In this document: positions 18,773-63,460 of the stretch, piece after piece
Layout of the letters: each line of letters opens with the position of its first letter
Numbering within the stretch: the first letter of the stretch is position 1
Origin: a virus
Lineage: Duplodnaviria; Heunggongvirae; Uroviricota; Caudoviricetes
Length of the DNA stretch: 64,000 bases
IMG/VR virus record: IMGVR_UViG_3300021140_000485
Strand: one strand, 5' to 3'
The notes under the pieces: generated by a model
Database searches by the model: none
The model's input: only the letters and a program-made list of their open reading frames with translations
What the model was told of the DNA's origin: nothing
Made by a program: the position numbers and the translations under genes

Positions 18773-19567
18773 TTACGCGATTTTTTCAAACTTAGATAAA
18801 GTTTCACTTGCTTTAGAACGTGCCATACCTGATGAACCACCAGCATTCAAGTCAGCAAAATAGTTAGACGCGTCTTTTTCATTATCAAATTTAGGAAGTG
18901 AATTTGGTGATTTACCTTTTAACATAAAGGCAATTGCAACTTTGGCAGCTACTCTTGGGTCATCTAATGAATCAGGATTACCTTCAAGGTTTTCACCAAC
19001 AAGACTACCATATTTTTTGTAGTTCGCTCTACCTGTTAGTCCATTGAACCCTCTACCTCTGTATTTGTATCCATCACCAGGTTCAGTGTTACCCAATCTG
19101 ATACCTGATTTGTACCCATACATATATTCAAAAAAGTCCTTATTACTTTTTTTAAGTCTCGTTAACTGTCTATCACTTAACCTTTGGGCTCTTTTACCAA
19201 AAATACTTCTGATTCTATCGTTACTTGTATTACCGTAACCAATTTCAGAACCCATCTGAAAACCAGATTCTTTGGCCAAAACACTTAATATACCAATTTG
19301 AGTATCAACATCAGTAATACCCATTTTATTCATTTCATCTATCACGATTTCTACGTTTCTGCCGGCTTCACCACTATAACTGTGTTTGATTTTACCATTA
19401 TCGGAAACTTCAAGGTCGTCGGTTTTAACCTCATCACCTTTTGGTTTCTCTTCAGGCGCAAATGCTGAAAGGGTTTTTAAAAAATCGGCAAGTCTCCCAA
19501 TAGCTTGTTCATTTAAACCCATAAGTCTAAACTGCTTATTAACTTCTTTCAAAAGTGGTTTTGACAT
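18773..19567 (-). CDS. GH19 (chitinase-like) peptidoglycan hydrolase / endolysin candidate.
   Basis: 'GDGYKYRGRGFNGLTGRANYKKYG' matches the GH19 catalytic-core signature. Confidence 0.75.
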   Translation of the reverse strand: MSKPLLKEVNKQFRLMGLNEQAIGRLADFLKTLSAFAPEEKPKGDEVKTDDLEVSDNGKIKHSYSGEAGRNVEIVIDEMNKMGITDVDTQIGILSVLAKESGFQMGSEIGYGNTSNDRIRSIFGKRAQRLSDRQLTRLKKSNKDFFEYMYGYKSGIRLGNTEPGDGYKYRGRGFNGLTGRANYKKYGSLVGENLEGNPDSLDDPRVAAKVAIAFMLKGKSPNSLPKFDNEKDASNYFADLNAGGSSGMARSKASETLSKFEKIA

Positions 19568-38424: not shown

Positions 38425-39447
38425 GTGATGACAGGGAAATTACAAAGATTAATCGACGATGTTAATAATGGTAAATTTGATATTATCAAAGATTTTTTTG
38501 GTGATATGGAAACTTTTTTGGACTATCTTGGTAAAAAAGGTTTGATACACGAATTAGACCTTATTAACAACGAAGAAGAATTCGAATATGAAGTTAACAA
38601 AATAGCCCTCGCAATTAAAGAACATAATCCCGAAAAATTTAGAGAATATGTTTTATCTTCATTAAGTGATGTTACTTATGAAAATGGTGAATACTATGTG
38701 ACTTTGAATGATAAAAGTAGACTCGCGTATCTTTTTTGTGATGATAGAAGAAATGGTATGTCTCAATCAACAATATCAGAGATACTAGATGGTGAATGGG
38801 ATTTTGATTTTTGGGATACTACCGATAATGTTTATAGGGATGTTATTCAAGAACTAAATAAGGATAATCTTACTTATTTATCAAAAAAAATAAGTAACGA
38901 ATTATCTGACGTTAAGGTAGAACCTGAAACAGAATTGTTAGAAGAAATTGCCGAGGAACAAGGTCATCCTGAATATGTAACCTTAACCCCCGAGTTGATT
39001 CACGACAGAATATTCAATGATGAGGATTCAACAGAAAGTATTTTGAATGAAACCGAAAACATTAAATCAGATTTACACTCATTACATAACAGAGCATATG
39101 CAAATGCTTATGAAGATGAGGTGTATAGTGGTATAATGGATGAACTTGAAACATTTTTTGATATGCGCCATTCTGATTGGATAACAGTTCCAAGTAGTGT
39201 AAACCCAAACAAATCTTATACCTATTTCAAAGTTAAAATAAATAATTTTGATTCAGAGATTTCCGATTACCTTAATAACGCGAAGAATCATAATGAACCA
39301 TTAAGTAATTATGGTGACTATCTTAGTATTTTGAGTGAAAATATTAGTTATGGTAGTGCCAATTGTTTGGTATATTACACGCCTGATTATGCGGATTGGC
39401 CAAAAACAAAAGAAAATATTAACGAACTTTTTGGTGACTATTTTTAA
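38425..39447 (+). CDS. Acidic hypothetical protein.
   Basis: 340-aa ORF. Confidence 0.55.
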
Positions 39448-42400
39448 ATAATCCCCTTTAGTTTAGCTTTATCCAAAACTTTTTTAGCTCTCTCTTCAAG
39501 AGATGTTATTCTAACCTCTTGTTCTTTTAACGCTTCAATGTTAACGGCAATCATTTCTTTATAATTCATTGTTAACACTTTACCTTCAGTATAAATAACT
39601 TCAGGAACATAAGGCAAAACTTCTTGAGCAATAAATCCAATAGCTTTTTTGTCATTAGAACTATATTCTTTACCTCTCCATTTAAATGTGACACCTCTAA
39701 TACTTAATATCTTATTTAGAGCATCACCGATAGGTTTAACATCTTTTTTCAGTCTTTCATCTGAAGGACCTGTTGGTCCTTGTGGACCTTGAGCTCCTTG
39801 TGCTCCGAATGTTGAACTAGCACCTCCTTGAGCCCCTGGTGCTCCTTGTGCCCCTGTTGGACCTGGTGTTGCAGAACCTTGAGCACCTGTTGGTCCTTTA
39901 AGACCTGTAGGTCCTTGTGCACCGACGGCTCCCTCAAAACCTTGTGAACCTTGAGCTCCTTGAGCCCCTGTTGCACCTTGTGCACCTTGTGGTCCATTAG
40001 GAGACGTTGGCCCTTGAGCCCCTTGAGCTCCTTGAGCTCCAATAGCACCTGAATTTCCTTGAGCGCCTTGAGCACCTTGAGCGCCGGCTGTACCTGAACC
40101 TTGAGCACCTTGAGGTCCTGTTGGTCCTGTTGCACCTTGAGGTCCTGTTGGTCCTGTTGCACCTTGAGCACCTTGAAATCCTTGACCCCCTGTAGGTCCT
40201 ACGGCTCCTTGTGAACCTTGAGCCCCTTGAGGTCCTGTTGGTCCTGTTGCACCTTGAGCTCCTTGAGCTCCAACAGGTCCTTGAGCACCTGTGGCTCCTT
40301 GGAATCCCTGCTGACCATTAGGTCCTATTCCACCTACGTCCCCTTGAGCACCTTGCGCTCCTTGGAATCCTTGTCCTCCTGTTGCTCCTTGAGACCCTTG
40401 AGCACCTGTTCCTCCTTGAGCTCCCTGAAAACCTTGTCCTCCTTGCGCCCCTTGTGGACCTTGAGCTCCTGTGGCACCTTGAGCACCTTGAGCTCCCTGC
40501 CCACCTTGCGCTCCTTGTGGACCTATTGCTCCTTGGAAACCTTGTGCTCCTTGAAAACCTTGTCCTCCTTGAGCCCCTTGAGTTCCTGTTGCTCCTTGAG
40601 CACCTTGAGCCCCTTGTGCTCCCTGTCCTCCTGTTGCGCCTTGAGCTCCTTGTGCTCCTTGTCCTCCTGTTGCTCCTTGGACTCCTTGTCCACCTGTTGC
40701 TCCTTGCGCACCTTGGTTACCAACAGCACCTTGAGCTCCTTGGAAACCTTGAGCCCCCTGACCTCCTTGTGCACCTTGTACTCCAACAGCACCTTGAGCC
40801 CCTTGTGCTCCTTGGAAACCTTGTCCTCCTTGAGCACCTTGAGTACCTGATATACCTACAGAACCTTGAGAACCTTGAGCCCCTTGTCCTCCTTGAGCAC
40901 CTTGAGTTCCTGATACACCTTGAGCTCCTTGAGCCCCTTGGAAACCTTGACCTCCTTGAGCACCTTGAGTTCCTGTTGTACCTTGAGCCCCTTGAGCTCC
41001 TTGAAAACCTTGTCCTCCTTGAGCTCCTTGGGTTCCTGTTGCTCCTTGAGCTCCTTGAGCTCCTTGAGCTCCTTGGAAACCTTGAGCACCTTGGGTTCCT
41101 GTTGCACCTTGAGCCCCTTGAGCTCCTTGGAAACCTTGACCTCCTTGAGCCCCTTGGGTTCCTGTCGCTCCTTGTGCACCTTGAGCTCCTTGTGCTCCCT
41201 GTCCACCCTGAGCACCCTGAGTTGCTGTCGCTCCTTGCGCTCCTTGAGCTCCTTGAGCTCCTTGACCACCTTGAGCACCTTGGTTACCAACTGCCCCTTG
41301 TGAACCTTGAGCCCCTTGTGCTCCTTGTCCACCTTGGGCTCCCTGATTACCTTTAGCCCCTTGAGCTCCTTGCGCCCCTTGGGCTCCTTGACCACCTTGA
41401 GCACCTTGGTTACCAACTGCCCCTTGTGAACCTTGAGCCCCTTGCGCTCCTTGTCCACCTTGCGCTCCTTGTCCACCTTGAGCACCTTGAGCCCCTTGTG
41501 CTCCTTGAGCACCTTGTCCTCCTTGAGCACCTTGTGTTCCCGTTGCACCTTGAGCACCTTGAGCTCCTTGGAAACCTTGTCCACCTTGAGCACCCTGTGT
41601 TCCTGTTGCTCCTTGAGCCCCTTGTGCTCCTTGGGCTCCTTGTCCACCTTGAGCACCCTGTGTTCCTGTTGCACCTTGAGCACCTTGTGCTCCTTGGGCT
41701 CCTTGTCCACCTTGGGCACCTTGGTTACCCTTTCCACCTTGAGCACCTTGTGCTCCTTGGGCCCCTTGTCCACCTTGAGCACCCTGATTACCTGTCGCAC
41801 CCTGAGCCCCTTGAGCTCCTTGAGCTCCCTGTCCACCTTGTGCACCTTGGTTACCAACCGCTCCTTGTGAACCTTGAGCTCCTTGAGCTCCTTGTCCTCC
41901 TTGGGCGCCTTGGTTACCAACCGCTCCTTGTGAACCTTGAGCTCCTTGAGCACCTTGTCCACCTTGAGCACCTTGATTACCTTTTCCACCTTGAGCGCCT
42001 TGAGCTCCTTGAGCTCCTTGTCCTCCTTGGGCACCTTGGTTACCAACCGCTCCTTGTGAACCTTGAGCTCCTTGAGCTCCTTGTCCACCTTGAGCGCCTT
42101 GATTACCTTTTCCACCTTGGGCGCCTTGAGCACCTTGAGCACCTTGTCCTCCTTGAGCCCCTTGGTTACCTGTTGCCCCTTGAGCTCCTTGTGCGCCTTG
42201 TGAACCTTGCCCTCCTGTTGCTCCTTGGGAACCTTGAGCTCCTTGGGCTCCTTGACTACCAACCGCTCCTTGAGCACCTTGGTTACCAGTATTACCCTGA
42301 GCACCTTGTCCTCCTTGGGCACCTTGATTACCTTGAGCGCCTTGTGGTCCAGCATTTACATTACCTTTCCATCCGGTAGAGTCTATTATTAATCCGTAAT

Positions 42401-42602
42401 TGTTTGTAACTGTATTAGCACTTAAATTTGTATTTTGTACTTGGAATATAGGTGCTGTCTTGGCAATTTTTAGATATGTTGTTGTTTGATTTACAACATA
42501 ATTCAATGTAGAACTAGAATATACCAAATCACTTCGAGTATTCCCCGAATCATAAAATTGTATTGTTATACTTGCAGGTACTATTATTATATTCTCAGCC
42601 AC
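39444..42602 (-). CDS. Collagen-like (Gly-X-Gln triplet) fibre protein with a C-terminal intramolecular-chaperone / peptidase S74 domain. Candidate tail fibre.
   Basis: About 290 uninterrupted G-x-Q triplets. The C-terminus '[12 protein letters not shown]....FKWR......GFIAQEV' matches the SDxRLK auto-cleaving chaperone signature. The N-terminal roughly 90 aa is non-repetitive. Confidence 0.85.
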
Positions 42603-45600
42603 GTAATTTTTCTTCTAATTCAGTTAATGATGTTTTAAGGACATCCATTCTTTTTTGATTTTCTTTTACAAAAGATACTCCAAGAGTAACAAGTAGTTCA
42701 TACTGTAAAGATTTATAACCAAACTTATCTTCCCAAACAATTTCAGGAAAATATTTTTCAACTTGTTGGGCGATAAAACCTATACTTCGTTTTTTAAGTA
42801 AATACTTTTCATTGTCTTTATACAATGAAAGTTGTGGTATATTTTCAACCCAATCAAAAGATACACCATTCATATTAACAACATCAATAGCTCTATCAAA
42901 TTTCTTGATGTTTTCTTTCAATCTTCTATCTGAAGGTGGCCCTTGAGGTCCTTGAGCACCTTGTGCTCCTTGTGGTCCCGTTTTACCAGCATTACCTTGA
43001 GCACCTTGAGCACCTTGTGGTCCTGTAACACTAGCACCTTGAGCTCCTTGAGAACCAGTACCTCCTGCAGGTCCTGTTGCACCTTGAGCTCCTTGGACTC
43101 CTTGTGGACCTGTCCCACCTGTAACAGCTCCTTGAGCGCCTTGTGCTCCTTGTGCCCCTGCAGCTCCTTTTCCTCCTTGAGCACCTTGTGCTCCTGTGGA
43201 ACCCTGAGTTCCGGCCTTTCCTGTTGCACCTGTAGCACCTTTTGGTCCCGATGGTCCTTGAGCTCCTGTTGGTCCTTGAGGTCCTCTTGACCCTTGTACA
43301 CCTTGTCCTCCTGTCTGACCTGCAGCACCTTGAGCCCCCTGTGTCGCACCCGCAGGTCCTTTTGTTCCTCCCGCACCTTGAGCACCTGTAGGACCTGGAC
43401 CTCCTGTAGGACCTGTCGCTCCTTGAGACCCTTGAGAACCTTGAGCTCCAGCGGGTCCTTGAGCACCTTGTGTAACACTCGGATTCCCTTGTGGTCCTTG
43501 TGAACCTGTTGCTCCTGTGGCACCCTGAGCTCCTTGGGTACCTCCTTGAGCACCTGTGGCTCCTTGTGGGCCTTGAGGTCCTTTTGCTCCTTGAGCTCCT
43601 TGAGGACCTCCTTGAGCCCCTATCGGACCTTGGGCTCCTTGAGCTCCTGTAGCACCTGTTGCACCTTGAGTACCTCCTGTAGCACCTTGGAATCCCTGAG
43701 GTCCTGTAGCACCTGTAGCACCCTGAGCCCCTTGAGGTCCTCCTTGTGCACCAACAGGTCCTTGAGCACCTGTAGCACCTGTAGCACCTGGAGCCCCTTG
43801 CGGAGTACCTTGTGGTCCTTGAGCACCTTGAGCTCCTGTTGGTCCTGTAGAGCCTGTTGCTCCTTGGACCGCTCCTTGAGCACCTTGATTACCAACAGCA
43901 CCTGTTTGTCCAGTCGCACCTTGTGCCCCTTGAGCACCTTGAGGTCCTCCTGGATTTCCCTGAGCACCTTGGGCTCCTTGTCCACCTTGAGCACCCTGTG
44001 CACCTGTTGGTCCTCCCTGTGCACCTGTTGGTCCTTGAGCACCTTGGGCTCCTTGAGCACCTTGTCCTCCTTGTACACCTCCTTGAGAACCTGTTGGTCC
44101 TTGAGCTCCTGTCGCACCTGTGGCACCTGTCGCTCCTTGCGTTCCTCCTTGAGCACCTGTTGGTCCTTGAGCCCCTGTTGCACCTGTGGCTCCTGTAGCC
44201 CCTTGAGGTCCTCCTTGTGCACCAACAGGTCCTTGAGCTCCTGTAGCTCCTGTGGCTCCCGTCGCACCCTGAACTCCACCTTGAGCACCTGTTGGTCCTT
44301 GAGCTCCTGTAGCTCCTGTGGCCCCTGTTGCACCCTGAACTCCACCTTGAGCACCTGTAGGTCCTTGTGCACCTGTTGTTCCATTAGCACCCGTTGCCCC
44401 CTGAACTCCACCTTGAGCACCTGTTGGCCCTTGTGCACCTGTTGTTCCATTAGCACCTTGAGCCCCTTGAGGTCCTCCTTGTGCACCTGTTGGTCCTTGG
44501 GCACCTGTTGTACCTTGAGCACCTTGAGCTCCTTGAGAAGCTCCTTGTGCTCCTTGTGAACCAACGGCTCCTTGAGCACCTTGTGCTCCCTGATTTCCCT
44601 GAACTCCACCTTGTGCTCCTGTAGGTCCTTGGGCACCTGTTGTACCTTGAGCACCTTGAGCCCCTTGAGAAGCCCCTTGAGCTCCTTGTGAACCAACGGC
44701 TCCTTGTGCACCCTGTGCTCCCTGATTTCCCTGAACTCCACCTTGTGCTCCTGTAGGTCCTTGTGCACCTGTTGTACCAGCGGCACCTGTTGCCCCCTGA
44801 ACTCCACCTTGAGCACCTGTAGGTCCTTGTGCTCCTGTGGCACCTGTCGCACCTGTTGCCCCTTGGACACCTCCTTGAGCTCCCGTACTACCTTGAGCTC
44901 CTTGAGCACCTGTCGTACCCTGAGCACCCTGAGAAGCACCTTGTGCACCTTGTGAACCAACGGCTCCTTGAGCACCTTGTGCTCCCTGATTTCCTTGGAC
45001 ACCACCTTGAGCTCCCGTAGGTCCTTGGGCACCTGTCGTACCTTGAGCACCTTGAGCACCTTGTGATGCACCTTGAGCTCCTTGTGAACCAACGGCTCCT
45101 TGAGCACCTTGTGCTCCCTGATTTCCTTGGACACCACCTTGAGCACCTGTTGTCCCTTGAGCACCTTGAGCTCCTGTCGCCCCTGTCGCTCCTTGCGTTC
45201 CTCCTTGAGCGCCCGTACTACCTTGGGCACCTTGGGCACCTGTGGCTCCTGTCGCTCCTTGTGTTCCTCCTTGAGCACCTGTACTACCTTGAGCACCTTG
45301 TGCCCCTGTCGTACCTTGAGCACCTTGTGAACCTCCTTGAGCACCTTGTGAACCAACGGCTCCCTGAGCACCTTGGGCTCCTTGTCCTCCTTGTGTCCCA
45401 CCTTGAGCACCTGTACTACCTTGAGCACCTTGAGCACCTGTCGTACCTTGAGCACCTTGTGAACCTCCTTGAGCTCCTTGTGAACCAACGGCTCCTTGAG
45501 CACCTTGTGCTCCCTGATTTCCTTGGACACCACCTTGAGCACCTGCAATACCTTGAGCACCTTGTGCCCCTGTTGTTCCTTGCGCCCCTTGAGACGCTCC

Positions 45601-46017
45601 TTGAGCACCTTGTGCTCCTACTGCTCCTTGAGCACCAGTACTACCTTGTGCTCCTTGAGCTCCTGTACTACCACCCCCACCTTGAGCTCCCGTTGTTCCT
45701 TGTGCCCCAACATTTCCTTGAGCTCCTTGAGCACCTTTAATAGTTGTTTGTGGTCCAATCCATACACCGGCATTATTAATCATATTTTGACCACCAACCC
45801 ATAAACCTGATGGTGAACTTGATATTGTAACACCTGTAGTTGTTATGTCATTATTACTGAAAACTACTAATGATGGACTTGTTGTTGCAGAAAATTTGAC
45901 ATCACCCGGTGCAACCATATTAATTTGGATACTATCCGCAGCAGACGCCCCCTCGTATACTATATGAGGCGATGAGTTTCCTGTAGTTCCACTTGGATAT
46001 ATTATTACGTCTGCCAT
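42595..46017 (-). CDS. Collagen-like fibre protein paralogue 2 with a C-terminal S74 chaperone domain.
   Basis: Gly-X-Y repeats with periodic one-residue insertions ([12 protein letters not shown]). The C-terminus is '[12 protein letters not shown]...VSFDW...GFIAQQV'. Confidence 0.85.
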
Positions 46018-46020
46018 ATA

Positions 46021-49000
46021 TTAATTTCTTTCAACCTTTTCTTCTAAATTTGTTAATAGAGAATCCAAGTCATCAATAAATACTTGTTGCTCTTTTATGG
46101 CTTCTACTAAATAAGCGTTAAGTGAGGTATAGTTTAAACTATAATAACCGCCACCCCTTAATTCAATTATATCTGGTATTACACTTCTAACTTCTTGTGC
46201 AATAAAACCAAACGAGTGTAGTTTACCATCTCGTTTCATTGCCTCATAGTTGGGGTCTAATTCGTTCCAATCAAATTCAACAGGATTTAATTGTAAAACA
46301 CTTTCTAACGAGTTTTCAATAGTAGTAATTTCTTGTTTTAAACTAATATCTGAAGGACAAGTATTAGGAACACCAATAATTAAACAACCTCCTGTGTCTA
46401 GGTCGTAATAAAGTGATGATAAGTCATACCATACGGGAGCAGGTAAAGGAGTTACACAACTAAGATTTGCACAGTCAGTCGCATTTTCAAACACAGATGT
46501 GTTGTTAGTCCAAGTAGTAATATCGTCTGGCGAGTATATGTCCCCATAAAATCCGCGGTTTAATGAACAAGCACTACCCGGGTCACCCGCATAATAACCT
46601 GAATATTGAAAACAAGATGCTGATGGTGGTCCTGCCGGTCCTGGCGCTCCAGGAGCACCCTGAGCACCTTGTGGTCCCGTATCACCTTGAGCTCCCGTAG
46701 CACCTGTTAGTCCGTCGGCACCTGCAGGTCCTGGTGCTCCTTGAGCACCTTGTGTTAACCCTTGTGCACCTTGTGGTCCTTGAGCGCCTTGTGCACCTTG
46801 TGGTCCTTTTGCACCTGTAGGTCCTGGTGCTCCTTGTGCACCTAATGGACCGGCACCTCTAAGTTCCCCTATTCCCCCTTGAGCCCCCTGAGCACCTGAT
46901 GGTACAATTGGTGTAGGTCCTTGAGCACCTTGTGCACCTTGTCCTCCACCTGCTCCTTGAGCTCCTTGGAATCCAAGAGGTCCTTGAGCACCTTGAGTAG
47001 CACCTGTTGGTCCTTGAGCCCCTGTAGCACCTTGTGGTCCAGGAAGTCCAGCAATTCCTTGTGTTCCAACATTTCCTTGAGCACCTGTAGGTCCGGGAGA
47101 ACCTTGAGCACCTGTTGCACCGATATTTCCAATAGGACCAGGACCTGTTCCTTGAGCTCCTTGTGGTCCTTGAACACCAGGAAATCCTGTGTTTCCTTGT
47201 GCACCTGTGGCACCTGTTGCACCTGTTGGTCCAACATCTCCTTGTGAACCTTGAAATCCAAAAGTACCGGTACCACCACCAGCACCTGTATTTCCAACAT
47301 CACCTTGTGCACCTGAAAAACCTGTGGCACCTTGAGCTCCTTGAGAACCTGTAGGCCCAACCGGACCTGTTGCTCCACCCGCTCCTTGAGAACCTTGAGC
47401 TCCTGTAGCACCAGTATTTCCAACATTACCTTGTGAACCTTGAGCTCCTTGAGCCCCTTGTGGTCCTCCTCCTCCCACAGGACCCGCAAAACCTGGAAAT
47501 CCTGTAGAACCTTGAGAACCTTGAGCTCCTTGAGCCCCTTGTGGTCCAACGGCCCCTTGAGAACCCTGAGCTCCTTGAGCTCCTTGAGCACCTATTGTAC
47601 CTGAATTACCTGTTGGCCCAAAGACTCCTACCGTTCCTTGAGCTCCTTGTGCTCCTTGTGGTCCTCCTGAACCTTGTGGACCTCGAGCCCCTTGTGAACC
47701 CTGAGCACCTTGTGCTCCTTGTGCACCCACATTACCTGTAGGTCCAACGGCTCCTTGTGAACCCTGAGCACCTTGTGCTCCTTGTGCACCTTGGTTACCT
47801 GTAGGTCCAACGGCTCCTTGTGAACCTGTATTACCTTGAGCTCCTTGGTTACCGGTATTTCCTTGGGCTCCTGTATGTCCTGTTGAACCTTGTGCTCCTT
47901 GAGCTCCTGTTGCACCTCCATTACCTGTTGGTCCAACCGCTCCTTGGAAACCTGTGTTACCTTGTGCTCCTTGATTACCTGTGTTTCCTTGTGCACCTGT
48001 ATGTCCTGTTGAGCCCTGAGCACCTTGTGCACCTGTTGCCCCACCATTACCTGTAGGCCCTACATTACCTTGTGAACCTTGAGCCCCTTGTGCCCCTTGA
48101 GCCCCTTGAGCCCCTTGTGGTCCTACATTACCTTGTGAACCTTGTGCTCCTTGTGCTCCTTGTGGTCCTGTTGAACCTGTTGGTCCGACATTACCCTGAG
48201 CTCCCTGATTACCTTGAGCACCTGTTGGCCCCACGTTTCCTTGTGCACCTGTGTGTCCTGTTGAACCCTGAGCACCTTGTGCTCCTGTAGCTCCCGCATT
48301 ACCTGTTGGTCCTACGTTACCCTGAGAACCTTGATTTCCTTGTGCACCTGTATTACCAGTATTACCTTGAGCACCTGTATGTCCTGTTGAACCCTGAGCG
48401 CCTTGTGCTCCTGTCGCACCTCCGTTACCTGTTGGTCCGACATTACCCTGAGCGCCCTGATTACCTTGTGAACCTTGTGACCCTGTTGCACCTGTTGGTC
48501 CGACATTACCTTGTGCTCCCTGATTACCTTGTGAACCTTGTGACCCTGTCGCTCCTGTTGGTCCGACATTACCCTGAGCACCTTGATTACCTTGAGAACC
48601 TTGAGCTCCCACATTACCTTGTGCACCAGGATGTCCTGTTGAACCCTGAGCTCCTTGAGCACCTGTCGCACCTCCGTTACCTGTTGGTCCGACATTACCC
48701 TGAGCACCTTGATTACCTTGAGAACCTTGAGCTCCCACATTACCTTGTGCGCCAGGATGTCCTGTTGAACCCTGAGCTCCTTGTGCACCTGTCGCTCCTC
48801 CGTTACCTGTTGGTCCGACATTACCCTGAGCGCCCTGATTACCCTGAGCACCTGTTGGTCCCACGTTTCCTTGTGCACCAGGATGTCCTTGAGAACCTTG
48901 AGCATTTGCTGAACCTTGAGCTCCTTGATTACCCTTTCCACCTTGTGAACCTTGTGAACCCTGAGCACCCGTATTTCCAATGGCTCCTTGAGCTCCTTGA

Positions 49001-49284
49001 TTACCTTGGAATCCTGTTATATTTGTTCCAGGTCCTAACCAAGCACCTGTACCATTTAATACTTGAATTCCTCCAATAGTTAGATTATTAATGATATTAA
49101 TATCATCATACGCTTGGATACCACCCGATGACATTAATAATGTAGAACCCCACTTTATAGAAGTACCAGCACCATAAGGTCTGACCTCTAACCTCAAAGT
49201 TCCCGTATTTTCAAAATCAATATAGGGAATCCTTCCGGGATTCGGGACTAAATTACCAGGTACAATTGTTATATTTTTTGCCAT
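46021..49284 (-). CDS. Collagen-like fibre protein paralogue 3 with a Cys-rich linker and a C-terminal S74 chaperone domain.
   Basis: G-N-x / G-A-Q triplets. The C-terminus is '[13 protein letters not shown]...VEFDWNE...FGFIAQEV'. Confidence 0.85.
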
Positions 49285-56791: not shown

Positions 56792-58531
56792 TTATTGAGT
56801 TTTTTTGTTATAATCAACAAGACTTTTCATTTTTTGAATCTCTTCAGAAATTAATTTCTCTTGTTTATTTTCTTTACTCTCACCTAATTTTTTGAAGATG
56901 TCTTGTGATTTTTTAGCACCTTTCTTAAGTTTCAAATCACCTTGTTCTGTTGACTCACCAGCTTGGTCCACAGGTTGTGGATATCTCTTATAAGACGCGT
57001 TCATTTGTTCTGCACCATAAACATTATCCTCAAAGTTTTTATACATCTTTTCACCAAGTTCTGATGGAACAACATTACCTAAAGCATTCCCATCTTTGTC
57101 AACTTGAGCATTACCCGTTTTAGATGAACCTTTTAAGTTAGCCTCAATCCACTCATCATTTGGTTTAATCTCGTCATAAACCAAATTAGTCATACCAGGA
57201 TATGCAAAATCGTCAATGTATTCCTCAACAGCATCTGAAGCTTTATAAGCTTTCTTAGGTGTTTCTTTCATTTCACCGTTACCCCTTGGGAATTTCTTAG
57301 GTTCCATATCATATTCACCTTCAGAAGCATCTTTTAAATACTCTTTCATCTTCTTAACAGTGTCTTTGATGTGTTTGTCATTAACCTCTTTGTTTTTCTT
57401 TTCAACCTTATTGAAATCGGGTTCAACTGAAGAACTTTTTTTACTAATATTTGATTGTTCCATTACAATTCTTTCAATTAAATCAATTATTTCATTTTCA
57501 GTCAATTTAACACTTTCATTAACTTTAGCTTTACCTTTACCAGGCCAATCTTTTTTAGCTCTTTTTGCAAAGTATAATTGACTCATTTTTGTCTTATCAG
57601 TATGTGGTACTTTCTTACCATCATCTTTTAATTTCTGAGTCTTGTCTTTCAATTTTTTGATTGCCTTATCTAAATCATCAATTGTCATATCAGAATATTG
57701 ACCAGTTTGTTTAACATCAACATTTCCTTTCCACTTTTCAGTAACTTCATATTTTTTACCGTCAACAGTAAAACTATCTTTACCTTCTTTCTTAGCCTTT
57801 GCTAAAGCCCCTGAGAATGCATTACCTTCTTCAGTCTCTCCTTGTTCACCCATTCTTTGTTTTTTTATATCCGAGTAAACACCAATAACTTTAGATGGTC
57901 TACCATCAAACTCATCTCTATCTTCTTCACCAATATCCATTCTTTTTTTACGTAATTTCAATGGTCCCCATTTGTCACGATATGTGTTAAATATTCTTCT
58001 ACCACTATCACTTTGGTCTCCACTTTGAAACCACCTTTGATTGCCAGCCTTTTCAGTAAATGAATCATAATCATCAAACTCTTCCTCGTCATAATCAAAA
58101 TCAAAACCACCAGTGTACTCTCTATCCCTTTCATCAGTCCAATACTCTTTATCACCTCTGTTTTGACCTAAAAATTTACTTTCATTGAATTCTTTAGCAA
58201 CTTTCTTTTCGTAATTGTATCCTACATTTTTAACCTTGCCTACTTTTTTAGGACTATCAGTTTCAAAATCACCGTAAGGTTTAACCCCTTCAATGTCATC
58301 ATCACCCATAGTGTATTCTTTCATAGGTTTTTTCTTACGTAGAAGTTTGAAGTCCCCAGCATCTATTTTATTATTCTTGTTCTTGTCTAACTCACTTTGT
58401 CTACCGTGTAGTTTTTCAGTGGTTTCAACTTTTTTGGCAATTTCAGAAACAATTTGGTCAGCCTTAGCCTCCAAAGCTTCATTTAATGCTTTTTCAACGA
58501 TGTTGTCAATATATTTTGAAAAATTGTCCAT
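56792..58531 (-). CDS. Large Lys/Glu/Asp-rich hypothetical protein.
   Basis: 579-aa ORF with a highly charged, low-complexity composition. Confidence 0.6.
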   Translation of the reverse strand: MDNFSKYIDNIVEKALNEALEAKADQIVSEIAKKVETTEKLHGRQSELDKNKNNKIDAGDFKLLRKKKPMKEYTMGDDDIEGVKPYGDFETDSPKKVGKVKNVGYNYEKKVAKEFNESKFLGQNRGDKEYWTDERDREYTGGFDFDYDEEEFDDYDSFTEKAGNQRWFQSGDQSDSGRRIFNTYRDKWGPLKLRKKRMDIGEEDRDEFDGRPSKVIGVYSDIKKQRMGEQGETEEGNAFSGALAKAKKEGKDSFTVDGKKYEVTEKWKGNVDVKQTGQYSDMTIDDLDKAIKKLKDKTQKLKDDGKKVPHTDKTKMSQLYFAKRAKKDWPGKGKAKVNESVKLTENEIIDLIERIVMEQSNISKKSSSVEPDFNKVEKKNKEVNDKHIKDTVKKMKEYLKDASEGEYDMEPKKFPRGNGEMKETPKKAYKASDAVEEYIDDFAYPGMTNLVYDEIKPNDEWIEANLKGSSKTGNAQVDKDGNALGNVVPSELGEKMYKNFEDNVYGAEQMNASYKRYPQPVDQAGESTEQGDLKLKKGAKKSQDIFKKLGESKENKQEKLISEEIQKMKSLVDYNKKTQ

Positions 58532-58571
58532 ACGATTTTTAATTATAAATATCCACGATTATGTAATCGTT

Positions 58572-59543
58572 TTATTTTTTGTTTTTAGTTTTTAGATTGT
58601 AATAAAGTATCTTTTTGATTATTTGTTCATCAACACCCAATTTTTGACTAGCCGAATTAATTGCTTCTTTAACTGAACCATTTTCAAAAATTTTAACTGC
58701 ACCTGCCCCTTGATTACAATAGGGAAAGGTCAAACATTTCTTTTTGACCTTAACAAACTTTCCTCCTTTATAAATTGGTTTCTTACCCCCTCTCCAGTTT
58801 TTCTTATTTTTAGCAATAAATGCCGGTGTTGAGTAAGCTCCTACTGAGGCTGACGTAGTTGCTTCTGTTGCTTCAACCTTTTCTATATCACCTTCTTTAC
58901 TCTCAATCTTAGATAATTTTGTATAGTAATGTGGGTCTTCATATAAATGGTCTTTTGCAATCTCCATTGCAATTTTAATACTATCGGTATGTTCTAATTC
59001 AGTTTTAACACCCTTAACAAGTTCTTTCTTTAAGGTTTTAAACACATCTTCAATTTCACCCTTCATTTTACCTTTAGAGTGCATTTTAGCAATATCCTTA
59101 AGTGTTTTACCTTTGGCTAAACCACCAGGTATCTTTTCAGTTTCATTTGTTTCCTCTTTAGTAAATAATGGTGCTGAAAATGGACCTGCAGATGATGCAC
59201 CTGTTGCCTCATCAGCCTCTATTTTATTAACCCTACCATATTTTTTCTTTTTTACAAATGGGTCATTAGACGCCGCATTTGGAACACCGTAACTGTATTG
59301 GTCACCAGTGTCTTTATCGTGTTTTCTAGATTTTTTCTTAAACTCAACAAAATCAGAATCTAATTTCAAATCTTCTTTGAATTTATTTTTAGCATCTTCG
59401 TATTCAGATTCTTTTGTCTCACCCTCCATATTCATAGAATATTTCAAAGCATCCCCAATAGTGTCAGAATTTAATTTGACATTCGGCTGTGATGTATAAG
59501 CCGCCATAATACCTTTTTTAAATAAATCTGAACTACTTCTCAT
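58572..59543 (-). CDS. Lys-rich hypothetical protein.
   Basis: 323-aa ORF. Confidence 0.55.
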   Translation of the reverse strand: MRSSSDLFKKGIMAAYTSQPNVKLNSDTIGDALKYSMNMEGETKESEYEDAKNKFKEDLKLDSDFVEFKKKSRKHDKDTGDQYSYGVPNAASNDPFVKKKKYGRVNKIEADEATGASSAGPFSAPLFTKEETNETEKIPGGLAKGKTLKDIAKMHSKGKMKGEIEDVFKTLKKELVKGVKTELEHTDSIKIAMEIAKDHLYEDPHYYTKLSKIESKEGDIEKVEATEATTSASVGAYSTPAFIAKNKKNWRGGKKPIYKGGKFVKVKKKCLTFPYCNQGAGAVKIFENGSVKEAINSASQKLGVDEQIIKKILYYNLKTKNKK

Positions 59544-59544
59544 C

Positions 59545-59790
59545 TTATGCGTTTCTTAATCTTGGTTCCCAATATGAACGGTTCATCCACATAAATTGGT
59601 AGAACTCTCTAAACATTCTTAAAGTAATATCTTTAATGTCTCCTTGAAGTTTACCTCTTTTTATTTCTTTGGCAATCGTGTCCATCATTTTGTCTTCGAA
59701 TTGCTTAATAGTATTAGTATTCATAAAGCTCTTTATTTCTTTACGAATTAATACCTCTATTTCTTTTACGTCTGAACTTGTTAGTGCCAT
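59545..59790 (-). CDS. Hypothetical small protein.
   Basis: 81-aa ORF. Confidence 0.45.
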   Translation of the reverse strand: MALTSSDVKEIEVLIRKEIKSFMNTNTIKQFEDKMMDTIAKEIKRGKLQGDIKDITLRMFREFYQFMWMNRSYWEPRLRNA

Positions 59791-60218
59791 TACTTTGTTA
59801 TGTATAAATAACTCAAAGTCAGAATTATTGCTCCTGAAATTATCTGAGAAAAAGTTTTTTTTGTTTTAACTTTTCTTAATTCTTTTTGAGTGGTTTTTAT
59901 CTCATCGTTTAAGATTTCATTTTTTCTTTTTTCACTTTCAACTAAGGTAATGTAATTATCCTCTTTTGACTTTAGTTTTTGTATTACTGAATCTTGATAA
60001 GTAACTTTTAATTCTAATTGTGTGATTTGAATATTAGCCAAAGATAATTGAGCAATCGCCGAATCACCCCTCATCAAATCTTTAACAACCTCTCTAGCAA
60101 CTTTAACAGGTAAAACTACTACCTGGCTATCTTTACTTTGAGTAACGGTCTGTGAAAAACTTGGTAAGCTCAGTGTCAGTAAAATTACTAACAGAATTAA
60201 TCTTTTTACCATATTCAT
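59790..60218 (-). CDS. Secreted coiled-coil protein (signal peptide 'MNMVKRLILLVILLTLSLPSFSQ'). Spanin-like partner candidate; no lipobox Cys.
   Basis: Its start lies 86 nt inside the preceding TM/coiled-coil gene, in another frame. Confidence 0.5.
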   Translation of the reverse strand: MNMVKRLILLVILLTLSLPSFSQTVTQSKDSQVVVLPVKVAREVVKDLMRGDSAIAQLSLANIQITQLELKVTYQDSVIQKLKSKEDNYITLVESEKRKNEILNDEIKTTQKELRKVKTKKTFSQIISGAIILTLSYLYITK

Positions 60219-60501
60219 TCCCTACTTTAATTCTAATCTCTTTTATTTGTTGTATACTGTTGTTTGTCTCTTCAATTTTAACTTCATACTTTTCAATCTC
60301 AGTTTGTAGTTTCTCTTGTTTTTTTTCGATATTTTCAATCTTATTATTTAACTCTCTAATTTCAAAACGAGCTTCTTCACTCATCTTACTTAAAGGTGTT
60401 AAAACAAAAATCATCCAATACAATATAAAAAGACACACAACAAATATTAATATAGATTTGTAGTTGTTCTTAATATATGATATGATTAGATTACTCTTCA
60501 T
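60133..60501 (-). CDS. N-terminal TM anchor plus coiled-coil protein (i-spanin-like topology).
   Basis: 'ILIFVVCLFILYWMIFVL' TM segment, then a heptad-rich region. Confidence 0.5.
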   Translation of the reverse strand: MKSNLIISYIKNNYKSILIFVVCLFILYWMIFVLTPLSKMSEEARFEIRELNNKIENIEKKQEKLQTEIEKYEVKIEETNNSIQQIKEIRIKVGNEYGKKINSVSNFTDTELTKFFTDRYSK

Positions 60502-61066
60502 CTTGTGTTGTTTGTTTTCTTGAAGCTAAAACCCTCGACCACTTAACTTTAAATTTATCGTAAAAACTTTTTAACTTATTAATTGTTTCTAAAGTCTCAT
60601 CATCAACTTTCAACATATTCCCGTTGATGTAAGTACCACTACTTTCACCAATAGTATAAATAAAATCAATATCTTTATCGATAATTTTACCTGACCATTC
60701 AACAGTAGTTGGGTATAGGTTTAATTGATTAAAATCTGAAAGGTCTGAAACCTCTTCAGAGAAGTCATCCATAGTCTCTTGGAAAGCAACTTTATCGTCA
60801 GTTGTAATGTCTGTATCAGATTTTTCTTTTCCGTGAATGGCTAGTATCCCACCTGATATTCTATATTTTTGGACATACTCATCGTCAGCCTCTTTTTCTT
60901 TACCATTCTCAGCAGTATCGTATTCATCCTGTTCGATTTCATCTTCGATACTCTTACCAATATTCATTGGTCCAAGTTTTTCGGCGTTTAATTGTTCCAT
61001 CACCAATCTTGATGTCTTTAACAAGTCTTTAATTTCGTCGTACCTATTGTTCGCTAAGTTGTTCAT
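60491..61066 (-). CDS. Acidic hypothetical protein.
   Basis: 191-aa ORF. Confidence 0.5.
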   Translation of the reverse strand: MNNLANNRYDEIKDLLKTSRLVMEQLNAEKLGPMNIGKSIEDEIEQDEYDTAENGKEKEADDEYVQKYRISGGILAIHGKEKSDTDITTDDKVAFQETMDDFSEEVSDLSDFNQLNLYPTTVEWSGKIIDKDIDFIYTIGESSGTYINGNMLKVDDETLETINKLKSFYDKFKVKWSRVLASRKQTTQDEE

Positions 61067-61655
61067 CTTCTATTTGTTTTTTGAATGATGTGAAAGGAAA
61101 TGCAGGACTTAAATCTGTAAATCTTTGGTCATAATTACTTCTTGAAACTATTCCCTTGAAGTTTTCGATGCCATCGAATTTTGTATTATGCCCTACGAAT
61201 TTATTTGGTATTGAAAATTTCTCACACAACATTTTACAAAGTTCAACAGATTTCTCGATTTGAACATCCGTGTATGGTTGCCAAAAGAAATAGTCTCTCC
61301 ACTTCTTTTCATATACATTATCTTTATAAATATTACCAATCCAATTCAAGTAGTGTTCAGAAAGAGGTTTTTTATTTAACCATCCATAGTTTTCAAAACA
61401 AACAATTATATGATTTTTTTTAATCCTATCATTAATTAAAAAATCACTAGTGTAATTCGGTGATAATATCTCTAATACTCTACCTTCTCGAGTTATTAGA
61501 TAGTGAGGTAACTTAGTATAGTTACCCCCCATTCTAAACTTAAGGGAGGTCAAGTATTCACTTGCCTCCCTTGATGTATGACAGAGCACAATCTGTCTTT
61601 TTTCTTTAAGTTTTTTTTGTGTCTTAAATTTACCGTAAACGATTACTTCATCCAT
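61044..61655 (-). CDS. N-acetylmuramoyl-L-alanine amidase-like (Amidase_2/PGRP fold) protein.
   Basis: 'IVLCHTS' plus 'HYLITREGRV' fit the Zn-binding His / substrate region of type-2 amidases. Moderate support. Confidence 0.5.
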   Translation of the reverse strand: MDEVIVYGKFKTQKKLKEKRQIVLCHTSREASEYLTSLKFRMGGNYTKLPHYLITREGRVLEILSPNYTSDFLINDRIKKNHIIVCFENYGWLNKKPLSEHYLNWIGNIYKDNVYEKKWRDYFFWQPYTDVQIEKSVELCKMLCEKFSIPNKFVGHNTKFDGIENFKGIVSRSNYDQRFTDLSPAFPFTSFKKQIEDEQLSEQ

Positions 61656-62328
61656 TTCGTCCTGTATAGGATAGTCGGTTTATATTGTTTTGTTCTTCGG
61701 ATAAATTTTCAAACTTTTTCCTGTTCATTTCATCAAGAAGTTTTTGTAGTCTTTCAATCTCTTCTTGTGACGCTTTTAACCTTTCATTCTCATCTCTTTC
61801 GAATTCTTTCTTAGCAACTTCTTTCGATATTTCGTCAATGTCAACGTCAGGTGGTAAAGTTTTCTTATCCTGTTCCTCAAATTTAACTAACATATGTAAA
61901 AACGAAAGAGAAATTAGTGGTAACATACCACCAGCAAAGAACGCTAAGAATCTTTTATGTGACACAAGGTTACCAGATTCAACTCCAATATATGAAACGA
62001 GAGGGTCTGTCATTTCAACCCAACTCTTGAACATATCTCCATTCATATCAATATACTGATAAGCAAAAAATATGTTACCAATAAATTGTATTAATGTTAC
62101 AATACCAAATGGTAAATAAACTTTTCTACCCATTTGTGCTGATATTGCAGCAAGTGCTGACAACGCAGCAATTTCAATACCTACTGATAGATAGATTGCC
62201 CAAGTAACAGGATTACTTATTCCATACCAAGTAGTAACGTGAGATATTGAAACAAATGCAACTGTTAGAATTGGAATCAAAAATGCAAAGTAGATGATTT
62301 TTTTAAAATTCCTTTGTATCCAATTCAT
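61648..62328 (-). CDS. Multi-pass membrane protein with a C-terminal coiled coil (holin-like or infection-related).
   Basis: 4-5 hydrophobic helices followed by 'EEIERLQKLLDEM'. Confidence 0.55.
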   Translation of the reverse strand: MNWIQRNFKKIIYFAFLIPILTVAFVSISHVTTWYGISNPVTWAIYLSVGIEIAALSALAAISAQMGRKVYLPFGIVTLIQFIGNIFFAYQYIDMNGDMFKSWVEMTDPLVSYIGVESGNLVSHKRFLAFFAGGMLPLISLSFLHMLVKFEEQDKKTLPPDVDIDEISKEVAKKEFERDENERLKASQEEIERLQKLLDEMNRKKFENLSEEQNNINRLSYTGRNG

Positions 62329-62330
62329 AG

Positions 62331-62618
62331 TTATTTCATTTTAGCTTCTAATGACGAAATTTCATTGTCAATTTGAGTTTGTCTATTAACATCTAAAATT
62401 TTTCTATCAGTTGATTGAATCATTCTTTTTTCGGATTTCAACCCTTCAATCTGAAGTCTTAAATTCAATTCTTCTTTAGTGTATGTGGAGTCTTTGATTA
62501 CACCAATCTCTTTTCTAATTTTTGACAACTCACGAGTGTCTCCACAACTTTTGAAGAAACTCAACACCGCAATTACCAAAACAATCACAGTGAAATTCTT
62601 TTTAATAAATTCTTTCAT
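62331..62618 (-). CDS. Small signal-anchored coiled-coil protein.
   Basis: 'FTVIVLVIAVLSFF' TM segment. 95 aa. Confidence 0.5.
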   Translation of the reverse strand: MKEFIKKNFTVIVLVIAVLSFFKSCGDTRELSKIRKEIGVIKDSTYTKEELNLRLQIEGLKSEKRMIQSTDRKILDVNRQTQIDNEISSLEAKMK

Positions 62619-62650: not shown

Positions 62651-63460
62651 TTATAGATAATCAAAAAGTTCACTAGACTCATTACGCAACTTACGTAAAG
62701 CCTTCTCTTTAATTTGTCTAACACGTTCCTTAGTTAATTGGAAGTCATTACCAATATCTTCAAGTGTACGGGTATTTCCTGACAATCCGTAGTAATCTTC
62801 AATGATAATTTTTTCACGGTCATCTAAAACTTCTAAGATACCTTTCAACTTGTCTTTAAGGATGTCTTTTGTATGAAATCCGGAGTCAGGTGCCAAAGCA
62901 TCAGGATTACTCAAAACATCCAACAAAGTATCACCATCTTCATTGAGGGGATTATCATAATTAACCGTATAAGGAAGGGTTACAAACTTTTCGGGTAACT
63001 CAACCCCACTCTTCTCAAGTTCTTTTTTAGCCTTTTGAAGTTCTTGAACAACATTCACAGGAAGACGAATAGTTCTCGCATTCTCGTTAAGTGATTGTAG
63101 GATTGATTGTCTTACCCACCAAACCGCATATGAAATAAACCTTAGCTGTTTGGACCAATCGAAATTTTCAACAGCTTTAAGTAATCCAAGATTACCTTCA
63201 GCAATTAGGTCACAAAGTTCTAATCCTTGATTTTGGTATTGTTTGGCAACAGTAATTACAAATCGGAGATTACCTGTTAACAATTCTTGTTCAATTTGAC
63301 GTTTCTCTGTTAACGTCAAATCATCCGATAACATTCTCTGAGCGAGTTGTTTTTCTCTATCAGGTGTCATAACTTTTATCTTACGAATATCTTTAAGATA
63401 AGTTGCAATCTCTTCTTGATTAATAGGGATACTTAAATTTTTGTCTTTCATATGTCTCAC
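62651..63460 (-). CDS. Sigma-70 family RNA polymerase sigma factor.
   Basis: Region 2 'FISYAVWWVRQSI' and 'LIAEGNLGLLKAVENFD'. Region 4 HTH 'RTLEDIGNDFQLTKERVRQIKEKALRKLR'. Confidence 0.85.
   Translation of the reverse strand: MRHMKDKNLSIPINQEEIATYLKDIRKIKVMTPDREKQLAQRMLSDDLTLTEKRQIEQELLTGNLRFVITVAKQYQNQGLELCDLIAEGNLGLLKAVENFDWSKQLRFISYAVWWVRQSILQSLNENARTIRLPVNVVQELQKAKKELEKSGVELPEKFVTLPYTVNYDNPLNEDGDTLLDVLSNPDALAPDSGFHTKDILKDKLKGILEVLDDREKIIIEDYYGLSGNTRTLEDIGNDFQLTKERVRQIKEKALRKLRNESSELFDYL

Follow-up and report, generated by a model that had tools for sequence, protein, structure and literature searches.

Gene pair and overlap

Can a phage complete host lysis through the outer membrane without a lipoprotein? 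This question is raised by two overlapping genes on a 64,000-nucleotide (nt) stretch of Caudoviricetes phage DNA (IMG/VR virus record IMGVR_UViG_3300021140_000485), hereafter called the window, which has a low guanine-plus-cytosine (GC) content (approximately 32%) and carries nearly all of its genes on the minus strand. A previous reading of the window, made from its letters alone (the original prediction), had described these genes, here designated A and B, as an echo of the overlapped Rz/Rz1 spanin architecture. Judged from gene context, it is fairly likely that A and B form a spanin-equivalent module that disrupts the outer membrane without a lipoprotein, and with this pair, cell lysis in Bacteroidota is probably completed in a manner not described before. 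The features concerned are the following.

60133..60501, minus strand: A, 122 amino acids (aa), a bitopic membrane protein with an i-spanin-like topology
59790..60218, minus strand: B, 142 aa, with a signal peptidase I (SPase-I) type signal peptide, a C-terminal hydrophobic segment, and no cysteine
60133..60218, minus strand: dual-coding overlap of A and B, 86 nt, with the tip of A in frame 0 and the signal peptide of B in frame +1

The predicted coordinates and the out-of-frame overlap of 86 nt (80 nt when counted from the second ATG of B) are read directly from the sequence, and both genes were also called by independent gene callers. The same bases encode the C-terminus of A (…TELTKFFTDRYSK, followed by the stop) and, in the +1 frame, the N-terminus of B (MNMVKRLILLVILLTLSLPSFSQ…). 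Conservation of the overlap had been named beforehand as a test on which the prediction could fail. Indeed, the overlap was retrieved in more than 70 distinct A/B pairs, in which it measures 74 to 128 nt, with B in the +1 frame in all of them. When 18 pairs were compared without gaps, the final 72 nt of A, located within the overlap, displayed identities of 0.70, 0.81, and 0.74 at codon positions one, two, and three, respectively, versus 0.62, 0.77, and 0.43 in the stretch of A just upstream of it. The freedom of the third position is thus lost inside the overlap, indicating that two reading frames are under selection. The architecture of A and B is that of the overlapped class of two-component spanins (Kongari et al. 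2018; PMC6139136).

The two genes also travel together. By means of a protein with four transmembrane (TM) segments encoded near A and B (the 4-TM protein), 65 related loci were fetched from viral contigs of up to 333 kilobases (kb), representing jumbo phages from environmental metagenomes. Of these loci, 52 contained A and B, which occurred together in 52 out of 52 and always overlapped. Almost all 65 loci share a backbone of genes for a sigma factor, a 95-aa protein, the 4-TM protein, an amidase, an acidic protein, an 81-aa protein, and a DUF5661 protein. In the close relatives of the window, A and B lie between the acidic protein gene and the 81-aa gene; in the remaining loci, which make up most of the clade, they lie approximately 0.9 kb upstream of the sigma factor gene. 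These two places indicate that the pair moves as a unit. The observation of an overlapping gene pair is correct and far beyond chance.

Features of proteins A and B

Protein A contains one strongly hydrophobic segment (residues 13-38, by hydropathy), with a net charge of +2 before and -1 after it, which indicates an N-in/C-out orientation. Its coiled-coil signal exceeds that of shuffled sequences in a crude heptad test (score of 0.82 versus a 95th percentile of 0.58), in agreement with the predicted N-terminal TM segment plus coiled coil. The combination of an N-terminal TM segment and a periplasmic helical domain, as found in i-spanins, is kept in 21 aligned homologues. In the same family alignment, the C-terminal tip displays a conserved motif, (E/D)L-x-x-FF-x-DRY, of which F116 is invariant and L112, R119, and Y120 are conserved for at least 90%.

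Protein B starts with a hydrophobic, SPase-I type signal that ends in …LPSFS↓QT (arrow, cleavage site), and it contains no cysteine at all. This bears out the predicted Sec signal; the coiled coil that was predicted alongside it is borderline (0.62 versus 0.64 in the crude heptad test), and a polybasic and hydrophobic C-terminal tail had been missed. This tail comprises a second hydrophobic segment (residues 126-140), preceded by a net charge of +5 and followed by a single lysine and the stop. The region in between is predicted to be helical and periplasmic, and carries a conserved KDL(L/M)xGDxA motif approximately 25 residues into the mature protein. Alignment of the B family revealed as common features a signal peptide with an (F/Y)S↓Q site, the KDLLxGDxA motif, the helical region, a K/R-rich stretch, and the terminal hydrophobic segment. 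The (F/Y)SQ site occurred in all 202 distinct homologues, no cysteine at all was present in 110 of them, and the C-terminal hydrophobic segment was found in 148 at a strict threshold. Glutamine right after an SPase-I site is a known peculiarity of secreted proteins of Bacteroidota. A profile search of public data yielded 784 homologues of B, none with a Pfam domain or an informative name, and neither PHROG, NCBIfam, nor PADLOC contained a family for B.

Lysis cassettes of related phages

Three genomic backgrounds with the A/B pair were encountered, namely freshwater jumbo phages like that of the window, myophages like Flavobacterium phage immuto, and phages that carry the pair before a T4-like terminase gene. 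The link with lysis comes from the second group. A tblastn search of GenBank phages with B matched Flavobacterium phage vB_FspM_immuto (160 kb), which was cultured on Flavobacterium sp. LMO8. This phage (vB_FspM_immuto_2-6A; NC_055915) encodes, as gp187 and gp186, both annotated as hypothetical, the same overlapped pair with the same features, gp187 being homologous to A (BLASTP E 2e-7) and gp186 to B (BLASTP E 1e-11). These genes belong to an annotated lysis cassette that consists of, in this order, a GH19 endolysin (phrog_181, E 3e-63; PF00182), a holin (PF05105, above cut-off), a YneF-like protein, a low-complexity protein, gp187, and gp186. The deposited start of gp186 (locus position 5992) is apparently 14 codons too far downstream; an upstream ATG at position 5950 (L066:5950-6351) restores the signal peptide MKKLILLIPILLLS… (MKKLILL…) that is present in all homologues, the overlap then being 89 nt.

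With the immuto B protein as query, 80 further viral loci were fetched, from which 40 distinct cassettes containing a holin, A, and B were obtained. The order GH19 endolysin, holin, A, B was found in 37 of these 40 cassettes. In addition, the start of A overlaps the end of the holin gene, by 14 nt in 34 cassettes and by 8 nt in three others; spanin genes would be expected to be positioned and coupled in this way. An independent sampling, anchored on the holin, retrieved A/B in 45 out of 62 loci, 44 of which displayed the same 14-nt overlap with the holin gene. The predicted Rz/Rz1-like pair in a lysis context was thus retrieved in relatives, both in immuto and in dozens of viral contigs; for the window itself, the surrounding cluster is not securely a lysis cassette, as discussed below. 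In the third group of phages, A/B directly precede a T4-like terminase large subunit gene (TerL; PF03237) and a portal gene (PF07230). The spanin genes 18.5 and 18.7 of phage T7 also adjoin its terminase gene.

A further family in these cassettes is that of immuto gp185, comprising proteins of 350-415 aa with multiple TM segments and a coiled coil. Its members directly follow the holin in six cassettes without A/B (L162:3967-5193, L163, L165-L167, and L222), and follow B in immuto (L066:6413-7558) and three other loci.

A scan of bacterial genomes revealed no prophage copies of the pair; two contigs of metagenome-assembled genomes were found, one of which, binned as an uncultured Flavobacterium, carries a 57%-identical copy and constitutes weak evidence on the host. 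Together with the low GC content, the (F/Y)S↓Q sites, and the homologues in a cultured Flavobacterium phage, this copy points to a host among the Flavobacteriia/Bacteroidota.

Comparison with known lysis proteins

The overlapped spanins, such as LysB/LysC of phage P2 and those of phage T5, with Rz/Rz1 of phage lambda as the prototype, resemble A/B in several respects. First, the 3' end of the first gene also encodes, out of frame, the export signal of the second one. Second, A is, by prediction, an N-in/C-out bitopic protein with a helical periplasmic domain. Thirdly, the pair directly follows the endolysin and holin genes in relatives and has moved as a unit. The differences all concern B or the sequences as such. 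B has an SPase-I signal, without a lipobox in any of 202 homologues, instead of a lipoprotein signal. Unlike Rz1, it is about as long as A (approximately 120 mature residues versus approximately 40) and helical-looking rather than Pro-rich. Moreover, it ends in a polybasic and hydrophobic tail and offers no periplasmic cysteines for disulfide links. Finally, as to sequence homology with known spanin families, A displays weak matches, discussed below, and B none. Since the lipoprotein feature that defines the two-component spanins was looked for and not found, A/B are not filed as a member of a two-component spanin family.

A second comparison concerns the disruptin of phage phiKT (gp28), a cationic membrane-active lysis peptide. 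The tail of B is likewise cationic and hydrophobic and might target a membrane from within the periplasm, no lipid anchor being needed. In contrast with disruptin, B is an exported protein of 142 aa with a partner instead of a short unexported peptide, and there is no sequence similarity between them. The u-spanin gp11 of phage T1 resembles B in having an export signal at the N-terminus and a hydrophobic anchor at the C-terminus, the latter corresponding to the C-terminal TM segment of u-spanins. Nevertheless, B lacks the lipoylation signal, always occurs with its partner A, and has a helical-looking periplasmic part, whereas T1 gp11 has been described as strand-rich (PMC6139136). The lipoprotein signal defines both o-spanins and u-spanins (PMC6139136), spanin catalogues filter on the lipobox (PMC12596118), and Bacteroidetes phages have been reported to use u-spanins only (PMC12596118). 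Immuto gp187/gp186 are the true homologues of A/B; theirs is a cassette with a GH19 endolysin and a holin, whereas the pair of the window lies beside a cluster with an Amidase_2 protein and a sigma factor.

Possible mechanism

The A/B pair would constitute a mobile two-gene envelope module of Flavobacteriia phages that acts in the last step of lysis. The N-terminal TM segment of A would fix this protein in the inner membrane, from which it would extend a helical rod of approximately 85 residues into the periplasm. B would be exported by the Sec system and cut by signal peptidase I, leaving an N-terminal glutamine, and would contribute a second helical rod. Two arrangements can be envisaged. 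If the tail of B stops the transfer and thereby holds B in the inner membrane, the two proteins would stand side by side, and the conserved tips, namely the C-terminus of A and the N-terminal KDLLxGD region of B, would reach the outer membrane. Alternatively, the tail of B would be fully exported and would insert into the outer membrane from the periplasm, so that A and B would meet tip to tip, like Rz and Rz1. The heavy positive charge on the periplasmic side of the tail is unusual for a stop-transfer anchor, so that the tail might also be exported completely and then inserted into the outer membrane. In either arrangement, triggering of the holin would allow the endolysin to remove the peptidoglycan mesh, upon which the A/B complex would be freed to act on the outer membrane. 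In the operon of the window, the Amidase_2 protein would be this endolysin.

If such a module operates, the coupling of two membranes needs no lipoylation. Many Bacteroidota phages have no recognisable outer-membrane disruptor; A/B would account for the way in which these phages get through the outer membrane of their hosts. Immuto gp187/gp186, with Flavobacterium sp. LMO8 as the host, offer a directly testable system.

Protein U in the same slot

The slot of A/B in the jumbo phages can be occupied by another protein, here called U, which is unrelated to A and B. This protein of approximately 210 aa carries a hydrophobic anchor at the N-terminus and terminates in a conserved …YWKI(K/R)LKK sequence; by eye, it also contains a strand-rich domain (L008:4181-4810, L018:7888-8529, L182:3919-4557, and 25 other loci). 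No match to U was found in Pfam, PHROG, NCBIfam, or PADLOC, and U is absent from the window. It occupies the slot alone in 11 jumbo loci and directly follows B in 17 loci, so that A/B, U, or both are present in 63 out of the 63 jumbo loci that cover the slot; the two loci without either are truncated contigs that do not reach it. Similarly, one immuto-like cassette (L182) has U in exactly the position of A/B behind the holin gene, which U overlaps by the same 14 nt. This U protein is 46% identical to one U protein of the jumbo phages (E 6e-58). Replacement of A/B by U in two unrelated genomic settings suggests that they do the same job. In-situ displacement is common among lysis genes. Several U proteins display a [KR]-x-C motif after the anchor.

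A wider, more tentative conjecture, which we would put clearly below even chances, is that Flavobacteriia phages use, after the holin, two unrecognised, lipid-independent classes of outer-membrane disruptors that substitute for each other, namely a tip-to-tip A/B pair, with B attached to the outer membrane via its tail, and a single-chain U that, with its N-terminus anchored in the inner membrane and a strand-rich domain in the periplasm, would act as an inverted u-spanin. If true, spanin-finding pipelines that require a lipobox would miss both classes. A/B would provide annotators with a rule for spotting lysis modules in Bacteroidota phage genomes, with U as a second such lead.

Evidence against an outer-membrane disruptor

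Several observations weigh against A/B as an outer-membrane disruptor. First, a lipobox-like motif was found in the first 32 residues of none of the 202 distinct B homologues, so that B lacks the lipoprotein signal of an o-spanin; the original prediction had already noted that B has no lipobox cysteine. Second, the tail of B would ordinarily be a stop-transfer anchor in the inner membrane, in which case no link with the outer membrane is predicted. Hence, B is, as had been proposed, not a lipoprotein, but its designation as an outer-membrane partner is not established. Thirdly, the comparison with spanin families that the original prediction had called for yielded weak matches for A and none for B. 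Rz-like spanin PHROGs were matched by a minority of 21 A homologues (phrog_739 by six, phrog_89 by three, and phrog_214 by two; best E 1.5e-5), amid coiled-coil matches, and these similarities appear to be at the level of coiled-coil noise, although their recurrence among A homologues, weak as it is, counts in favour of a spanin-like role. Likewise, A gave nothing except coiled-coil noise, far below the cut-offs, in NCBIfam and PADLOC, and no match above the cut-off in Pfam. Fourthly, a Pro-rich canonical lipoprotein of 63-72 aa directly follows B in three of the 40 immuto-like cassettes (L090:5533-5751, L106:4152-4346, and L109:1756-1947, with signals …LLTSC, …LVTSC, and …FFTAC, respectively). 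It resembles a classical o-spanin and might be the real partner of A in those three cassettes; a canonical lipobox open reading frame (ORF) within 1 kb was found in only four of the 40. Fifthly, the pair is missing from some loci. It is not adjacent to the holin in 17 of the 62 holin-sampled loci, six of which hold a protein with multiple TM segments and a helical part, and nine of which hold genes resembling the deazaguanine pathway (by eye). Also, no A/B was found within the 12 kb fetched in 11 jumbo loci. In those genomes, the pair is either dispensable, replaced, or located elsewhere. Lastly, the surroundings in the clade of the window look regulatory or early rather than like a late lysis block, with a sigma factor and, by eye, ClpP- and SbcC-like proteins, and the called genes near the cluster in relatives include DnaJ and Hc1.

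Gene cluster of the window

Whether A/B of the window are part of a lysis cassette depends on their neighbours. From position 62618 down to 59545, seven minus-strand genes follow each other with overlapping or abutting ends, as in an operon, in the order 95-aa TM protein, 4-TM protein, Amidase_2 protein, acidic protein, A, B, and 81-aa protein. Besides A and B, the features are the following.

62651..63460, just upstream of the cluster: sigma-70-like gene, with Pfam regions 2 and 4 (phrog_351, E 4e-53)
62331..62618, minus strand: 95-aa protein, with an N-terminal hydrophobic segment, then an invariant [KR][SGAT]C, and a helical domain
61648..62328, minus strand: 226-aa membrane protein (the 4-TM protein), with four TM helices and a hypervariable tail
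61044..61655, minus strand: Amidase_2 protein, 203 aa, with a predicted fold as in peptidoglycan recognition proteins (PGRPs) and T7 lysozyme and without a signal sequence, a candidate cytoplasmic endolysin
60491..61066, minus strand: 191-aa acidic protein, net charge of -19, no TM segment, between the amidase and A
59545..59790, minus strand: 81-aa soluble protein, a conserved cluster member, the start of which overlaps the stop of B by 1 nt
18773..19567, minus strand: GH19-like protein, 264 aa, outside the cluster, among metabolic-type genes (phrog_181)

The 95-aa gene ends 2 nt upstream of the 4-TM gene, the stop of which overlaps the start of the amidase gene by 8 nt. The acidic protein gene overlaps its neighbours, the amidase gene and A, at both ends and is kept in 64 of the 65 related loci. 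It accounts for a correction to the original prediction, which had placed an Amidase_2-like protein adjacent to the pair; the domain was recovered, but the acidic protein gene lies in between, and approximately 540 nt separate the amidase gene from the downstream A/B pair. A DNA search of GenBank phages with 7.5 kb of the region gave no match. A promoter scan was at chance level, promoter and terminator scans being uninformative for this type of host.

The 203-aa protein matches Pfam PF01510 (E 1.4e-9; 38.8 bits versus a cut-off of 26). Its AF2 model (predicted local distance difference test score, pLDDT, of 71) has an Amidase_2 fold, with amidase endolysins, AmiA/AmiE, PGRPs, AmpD, and T7 lysozyme as top Foldseek matches in the Protein Data Bank (PDB; probability 1.00). 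The residues H26, E88, H156, and D181, assigned by motif comparison and not by structural superposition, are invariant in the 22 sequences of the subclade of the window, as would suit a zinc amidase. Thus, Pfam domain, predicted fold, and the H/H/D plus E positions resemble those of Amidase_2 endolysins, PGRPs, and T7 lysozyme, and the absence of a signal peptide is shared with holin-dependent endolysins. It differs from Amidase_2 endolysins by a long insertion between the second histidine and the aspartate, the absence of a cell-wall-binding domain detectable by Pfam, and the fact that the predicted zinc ligands are not conserved throughout the clade. Indeed, in its distant half, H26 is replaced by Asp and H156 by Ser or Gln, although these proteins still pass the Pfam cut-off (e.g. 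L019:7219-7824). Hence, catalysis may not be the function conserved across the amidase clade. No tblastn match of the amidase was found in GenBank phages, nor a sequence match in the PDB with the amidase profile. Intact ligands were encountered only where A/B lie directly behind the amidase cluster and altered ones where A/B lie upstream of the sigma factor gene, an association that is confounded by phylogeny. For the protein of the window itself, a role as endolysin is plausible; since it has no export signal, its access to the cell wall would require a lesion in the membrane.

The 226-aa protein had been predicted as a holin-like protein with four or five TM segments and a coiled-coil tail. 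Four hydrophobic segments were found by hydropathy, which a model of low confidence (pLDDT of 64) folded as helices, with a helical tail; a coiled coil was not supported by the crude heptad test, neither for this tail nor for the 95-aa protein. The membrane domain, in which many polar residues are invariant (S27, S29, H30, T32, E52, Q81, N85, H124, K125, R126, and H145), displays a mean column identity of 80% across the clade and is far more conserved than the neighbouring sigma factor or amidase. The cytoplasmic tail is hypervariable, consisting of a helical segment here and of long Pro/Glu/Val/Ile repeats elsewhere (L019:5995-7104). This pattern of conservation suggests an enzyme, a channel, or a scaffold rather than a typical holin. 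A protein with four TM segments and a charged tail encoded next to an amidase gene is found here, but a length of at least 226 aa and a column identity of 80% are atypical for holins. No match was found in Pfam, PHROG, NCBIfam, or PADLOC, and there was no similarity to the immuto holin; Pfam, PHROG, and the comparison with the immuto holin revealed no recognised holin in the window as a whole. The 4-TM protein may thus be a holin-like or other membrane component. A profile search retrieved 829 cluster representatives; of the ten that were scanned, one displayed a marginal TacA1 match in the tail and the other nine were devoid of Pfam domains. The sole tblastn match in GenBank phages was an unannotated 462-kb uncultured phage, and Foldseek against viral structures returned uncharacterised phage homologues only. 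Homology of the 4-TM protein with immuto gp185, which it resembles by eye, was rejected on the basis of BLASTP, hhalign, and a hidden Markov model built from 136 diverse representatives.

The 95-aa protein, which had no place in the original prediction, is present in 63 of the 65 related loci and carries [FL][FLV][KR][SGAT]C right after its hydrophobic segment in 38 out of 38 distinct homologues. This motif is lipobox-like save for the K/R at position -2, which makes it non-canonical; as a candidate for the missing lipoprotein partner, the protein hence has against it the basic residue preceding its invariant cysteine by two positions. It had no tblastn match in GenBank phages. The only ORF with a canonical lipobox in the 64-kb window encodes a Band_7 protein, so that A/B have no canonical rival close by, which favours them as outer-membrane disruptor.

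Alternative explanations

The alternative that survives best concerns the cluster rather than the pair. The region from 59790 to 62618 may not be a lysis cassette at all, the amidase, 4-TM, and 95-aa proteins serving in wall remodelling, peptidoglycan sensing, or a T7-lysozyme-like control of transcription, the GH19-like protein encoded at 18773 being the endolysin, and A/B having merely landed beside them. This is a serious possibility, although we rate its chances at clearly less than one in two. It would account for the amidase gene being kept in 64 of the 65 loci in spite of the replaced zinc ligands in the distant half of the clade, and for the membrane domain of the 4-TM protein, with no holin family match, being so much more conserved (80% column identity) than distant amidases (approximately 35%) and distant sigma factors (approximately 50%). 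In addition, the cluster always follows the sigma-70-like gene, A/B lie on the other side of that gene in most of the clade, and the GH19-like protein matches an endolysin PHROG. Against this stand the invariance of H26, E88, H156, and D181 in the subclade of the window, the match of the predicted fold with amidase endolysins, the membrane lesion that an amidase without export signal needs for access to the wall, the operon-like packing of the genes from 62618 to 59545, and the location of A/B within approximately 3 kb in all members. Nonetheless, the loss of the amidase zinc ligands in the distant half of the clade means that the whole cluster is not securely a lysis cassette.

For the pair itself, an unlikely alternative to outer-membrane disruption is that A and B regulate the timing of lysis, as an antiholin, a holin accessory, or a lysis-inhibition sensor like T4 RI, in the form of a periplasmic sensor pair in the inner membrane that modulates the holin. 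Indeed, an inner-membrane anchor is the simplest prediction for both proteins, and A is translationally coupled to the holin gene. LysA of phage P2 is an example of a regulator in a lysis cassette. Lysis cassettes carry regulators such as phiKZ gp143 too (10.1101/2025.11.11.687635), some relatives lack A/B beside the holin, as could be expected of an accessory function, and three cassettes encode a separate small lipoprotein after B. Yet A/B also occur far from any holin, namely before the terminase or beside an amidase or sigma factor gene, and the overlap of a gene for a TM protein with one for a signal-bearing protein is characteristic of spanins. Furthermore, the antiholins described so far are mostly either paralogues of holins or single proteins, and most cassettes show no other candidate for disruption of the outer membrane.

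Weakest is the idea, which we regard as quite improbable, that A/B and U are accessory envelope proteins (for superinfection exclusion or envelope modification) in a variable moron slot, without a role in lysis; although the slot varies among close relatives (A/B only, A/B plus U, or U only), lies in jumbo phages among regulatory-type genes (the sigma factor confirmed, ClpP- and SbcC-like by eye), and encodes membrane or periplasmic products without an enzymatic domain, this idea sits badly with the tight coupling to the holin in 37 of the 40 cassettes, shared by U, with the presence of A/B, U, or both in 63 of the 63 covered jumbo loci, which argues for a required function, and with the absence of a PADLOC match.

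Other features of the window

A separate GH19 enzyme had been predicted at 18773. The encoded protein matches the PHROG endolysin family phrog_181 (E 3.4e-26), but its Pfam GH19 score of 23.1 bits stays below the cut-off of 25.5. Its gene adjoins that of a metallophosphoesterase, near the Band_7 protein gene, the neighbours being unrelated genes. The phage of the window may hence possess two wall hydrolases. At 1.4 kb from the GH19-like gene, a minus-strand gene (17121-17366) encodes an 81-aa protein with, by eye, two hydrophobic segments and a charged C-terminal tail, the layout of a class-II holin, and without a Pfam match; it overlaps the start of the Band_7/SPFH lipoprotein gene (16283-17137).

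Downstream of the cluster, positions 56792-59543 encode two conserved Lys/Glu-rich proteins of 323 aa (DUF5661) and 579 aa. In relatives (L068-L071), these two genes are followed by genes for an Hc1 histone-like protein and DnaJ, a region that looks regulatory or dedicated to host takeover and not late structural. Finally, three consecutive giant ORFs of 1052, 1140, and 1087 aa occupy the minus strand from 39444 to 49284. The middle one, the sole one that was translated, contains collagen-like G-X-Y repeats and, by eye, a C-terminus of the intramolecular-chaperone type (DRRLKENI). The three ORFs probably encode collagen-like tail fibres, and such repeats would account for the local GC content of 0.43-0.56 in a genome of 0.32.

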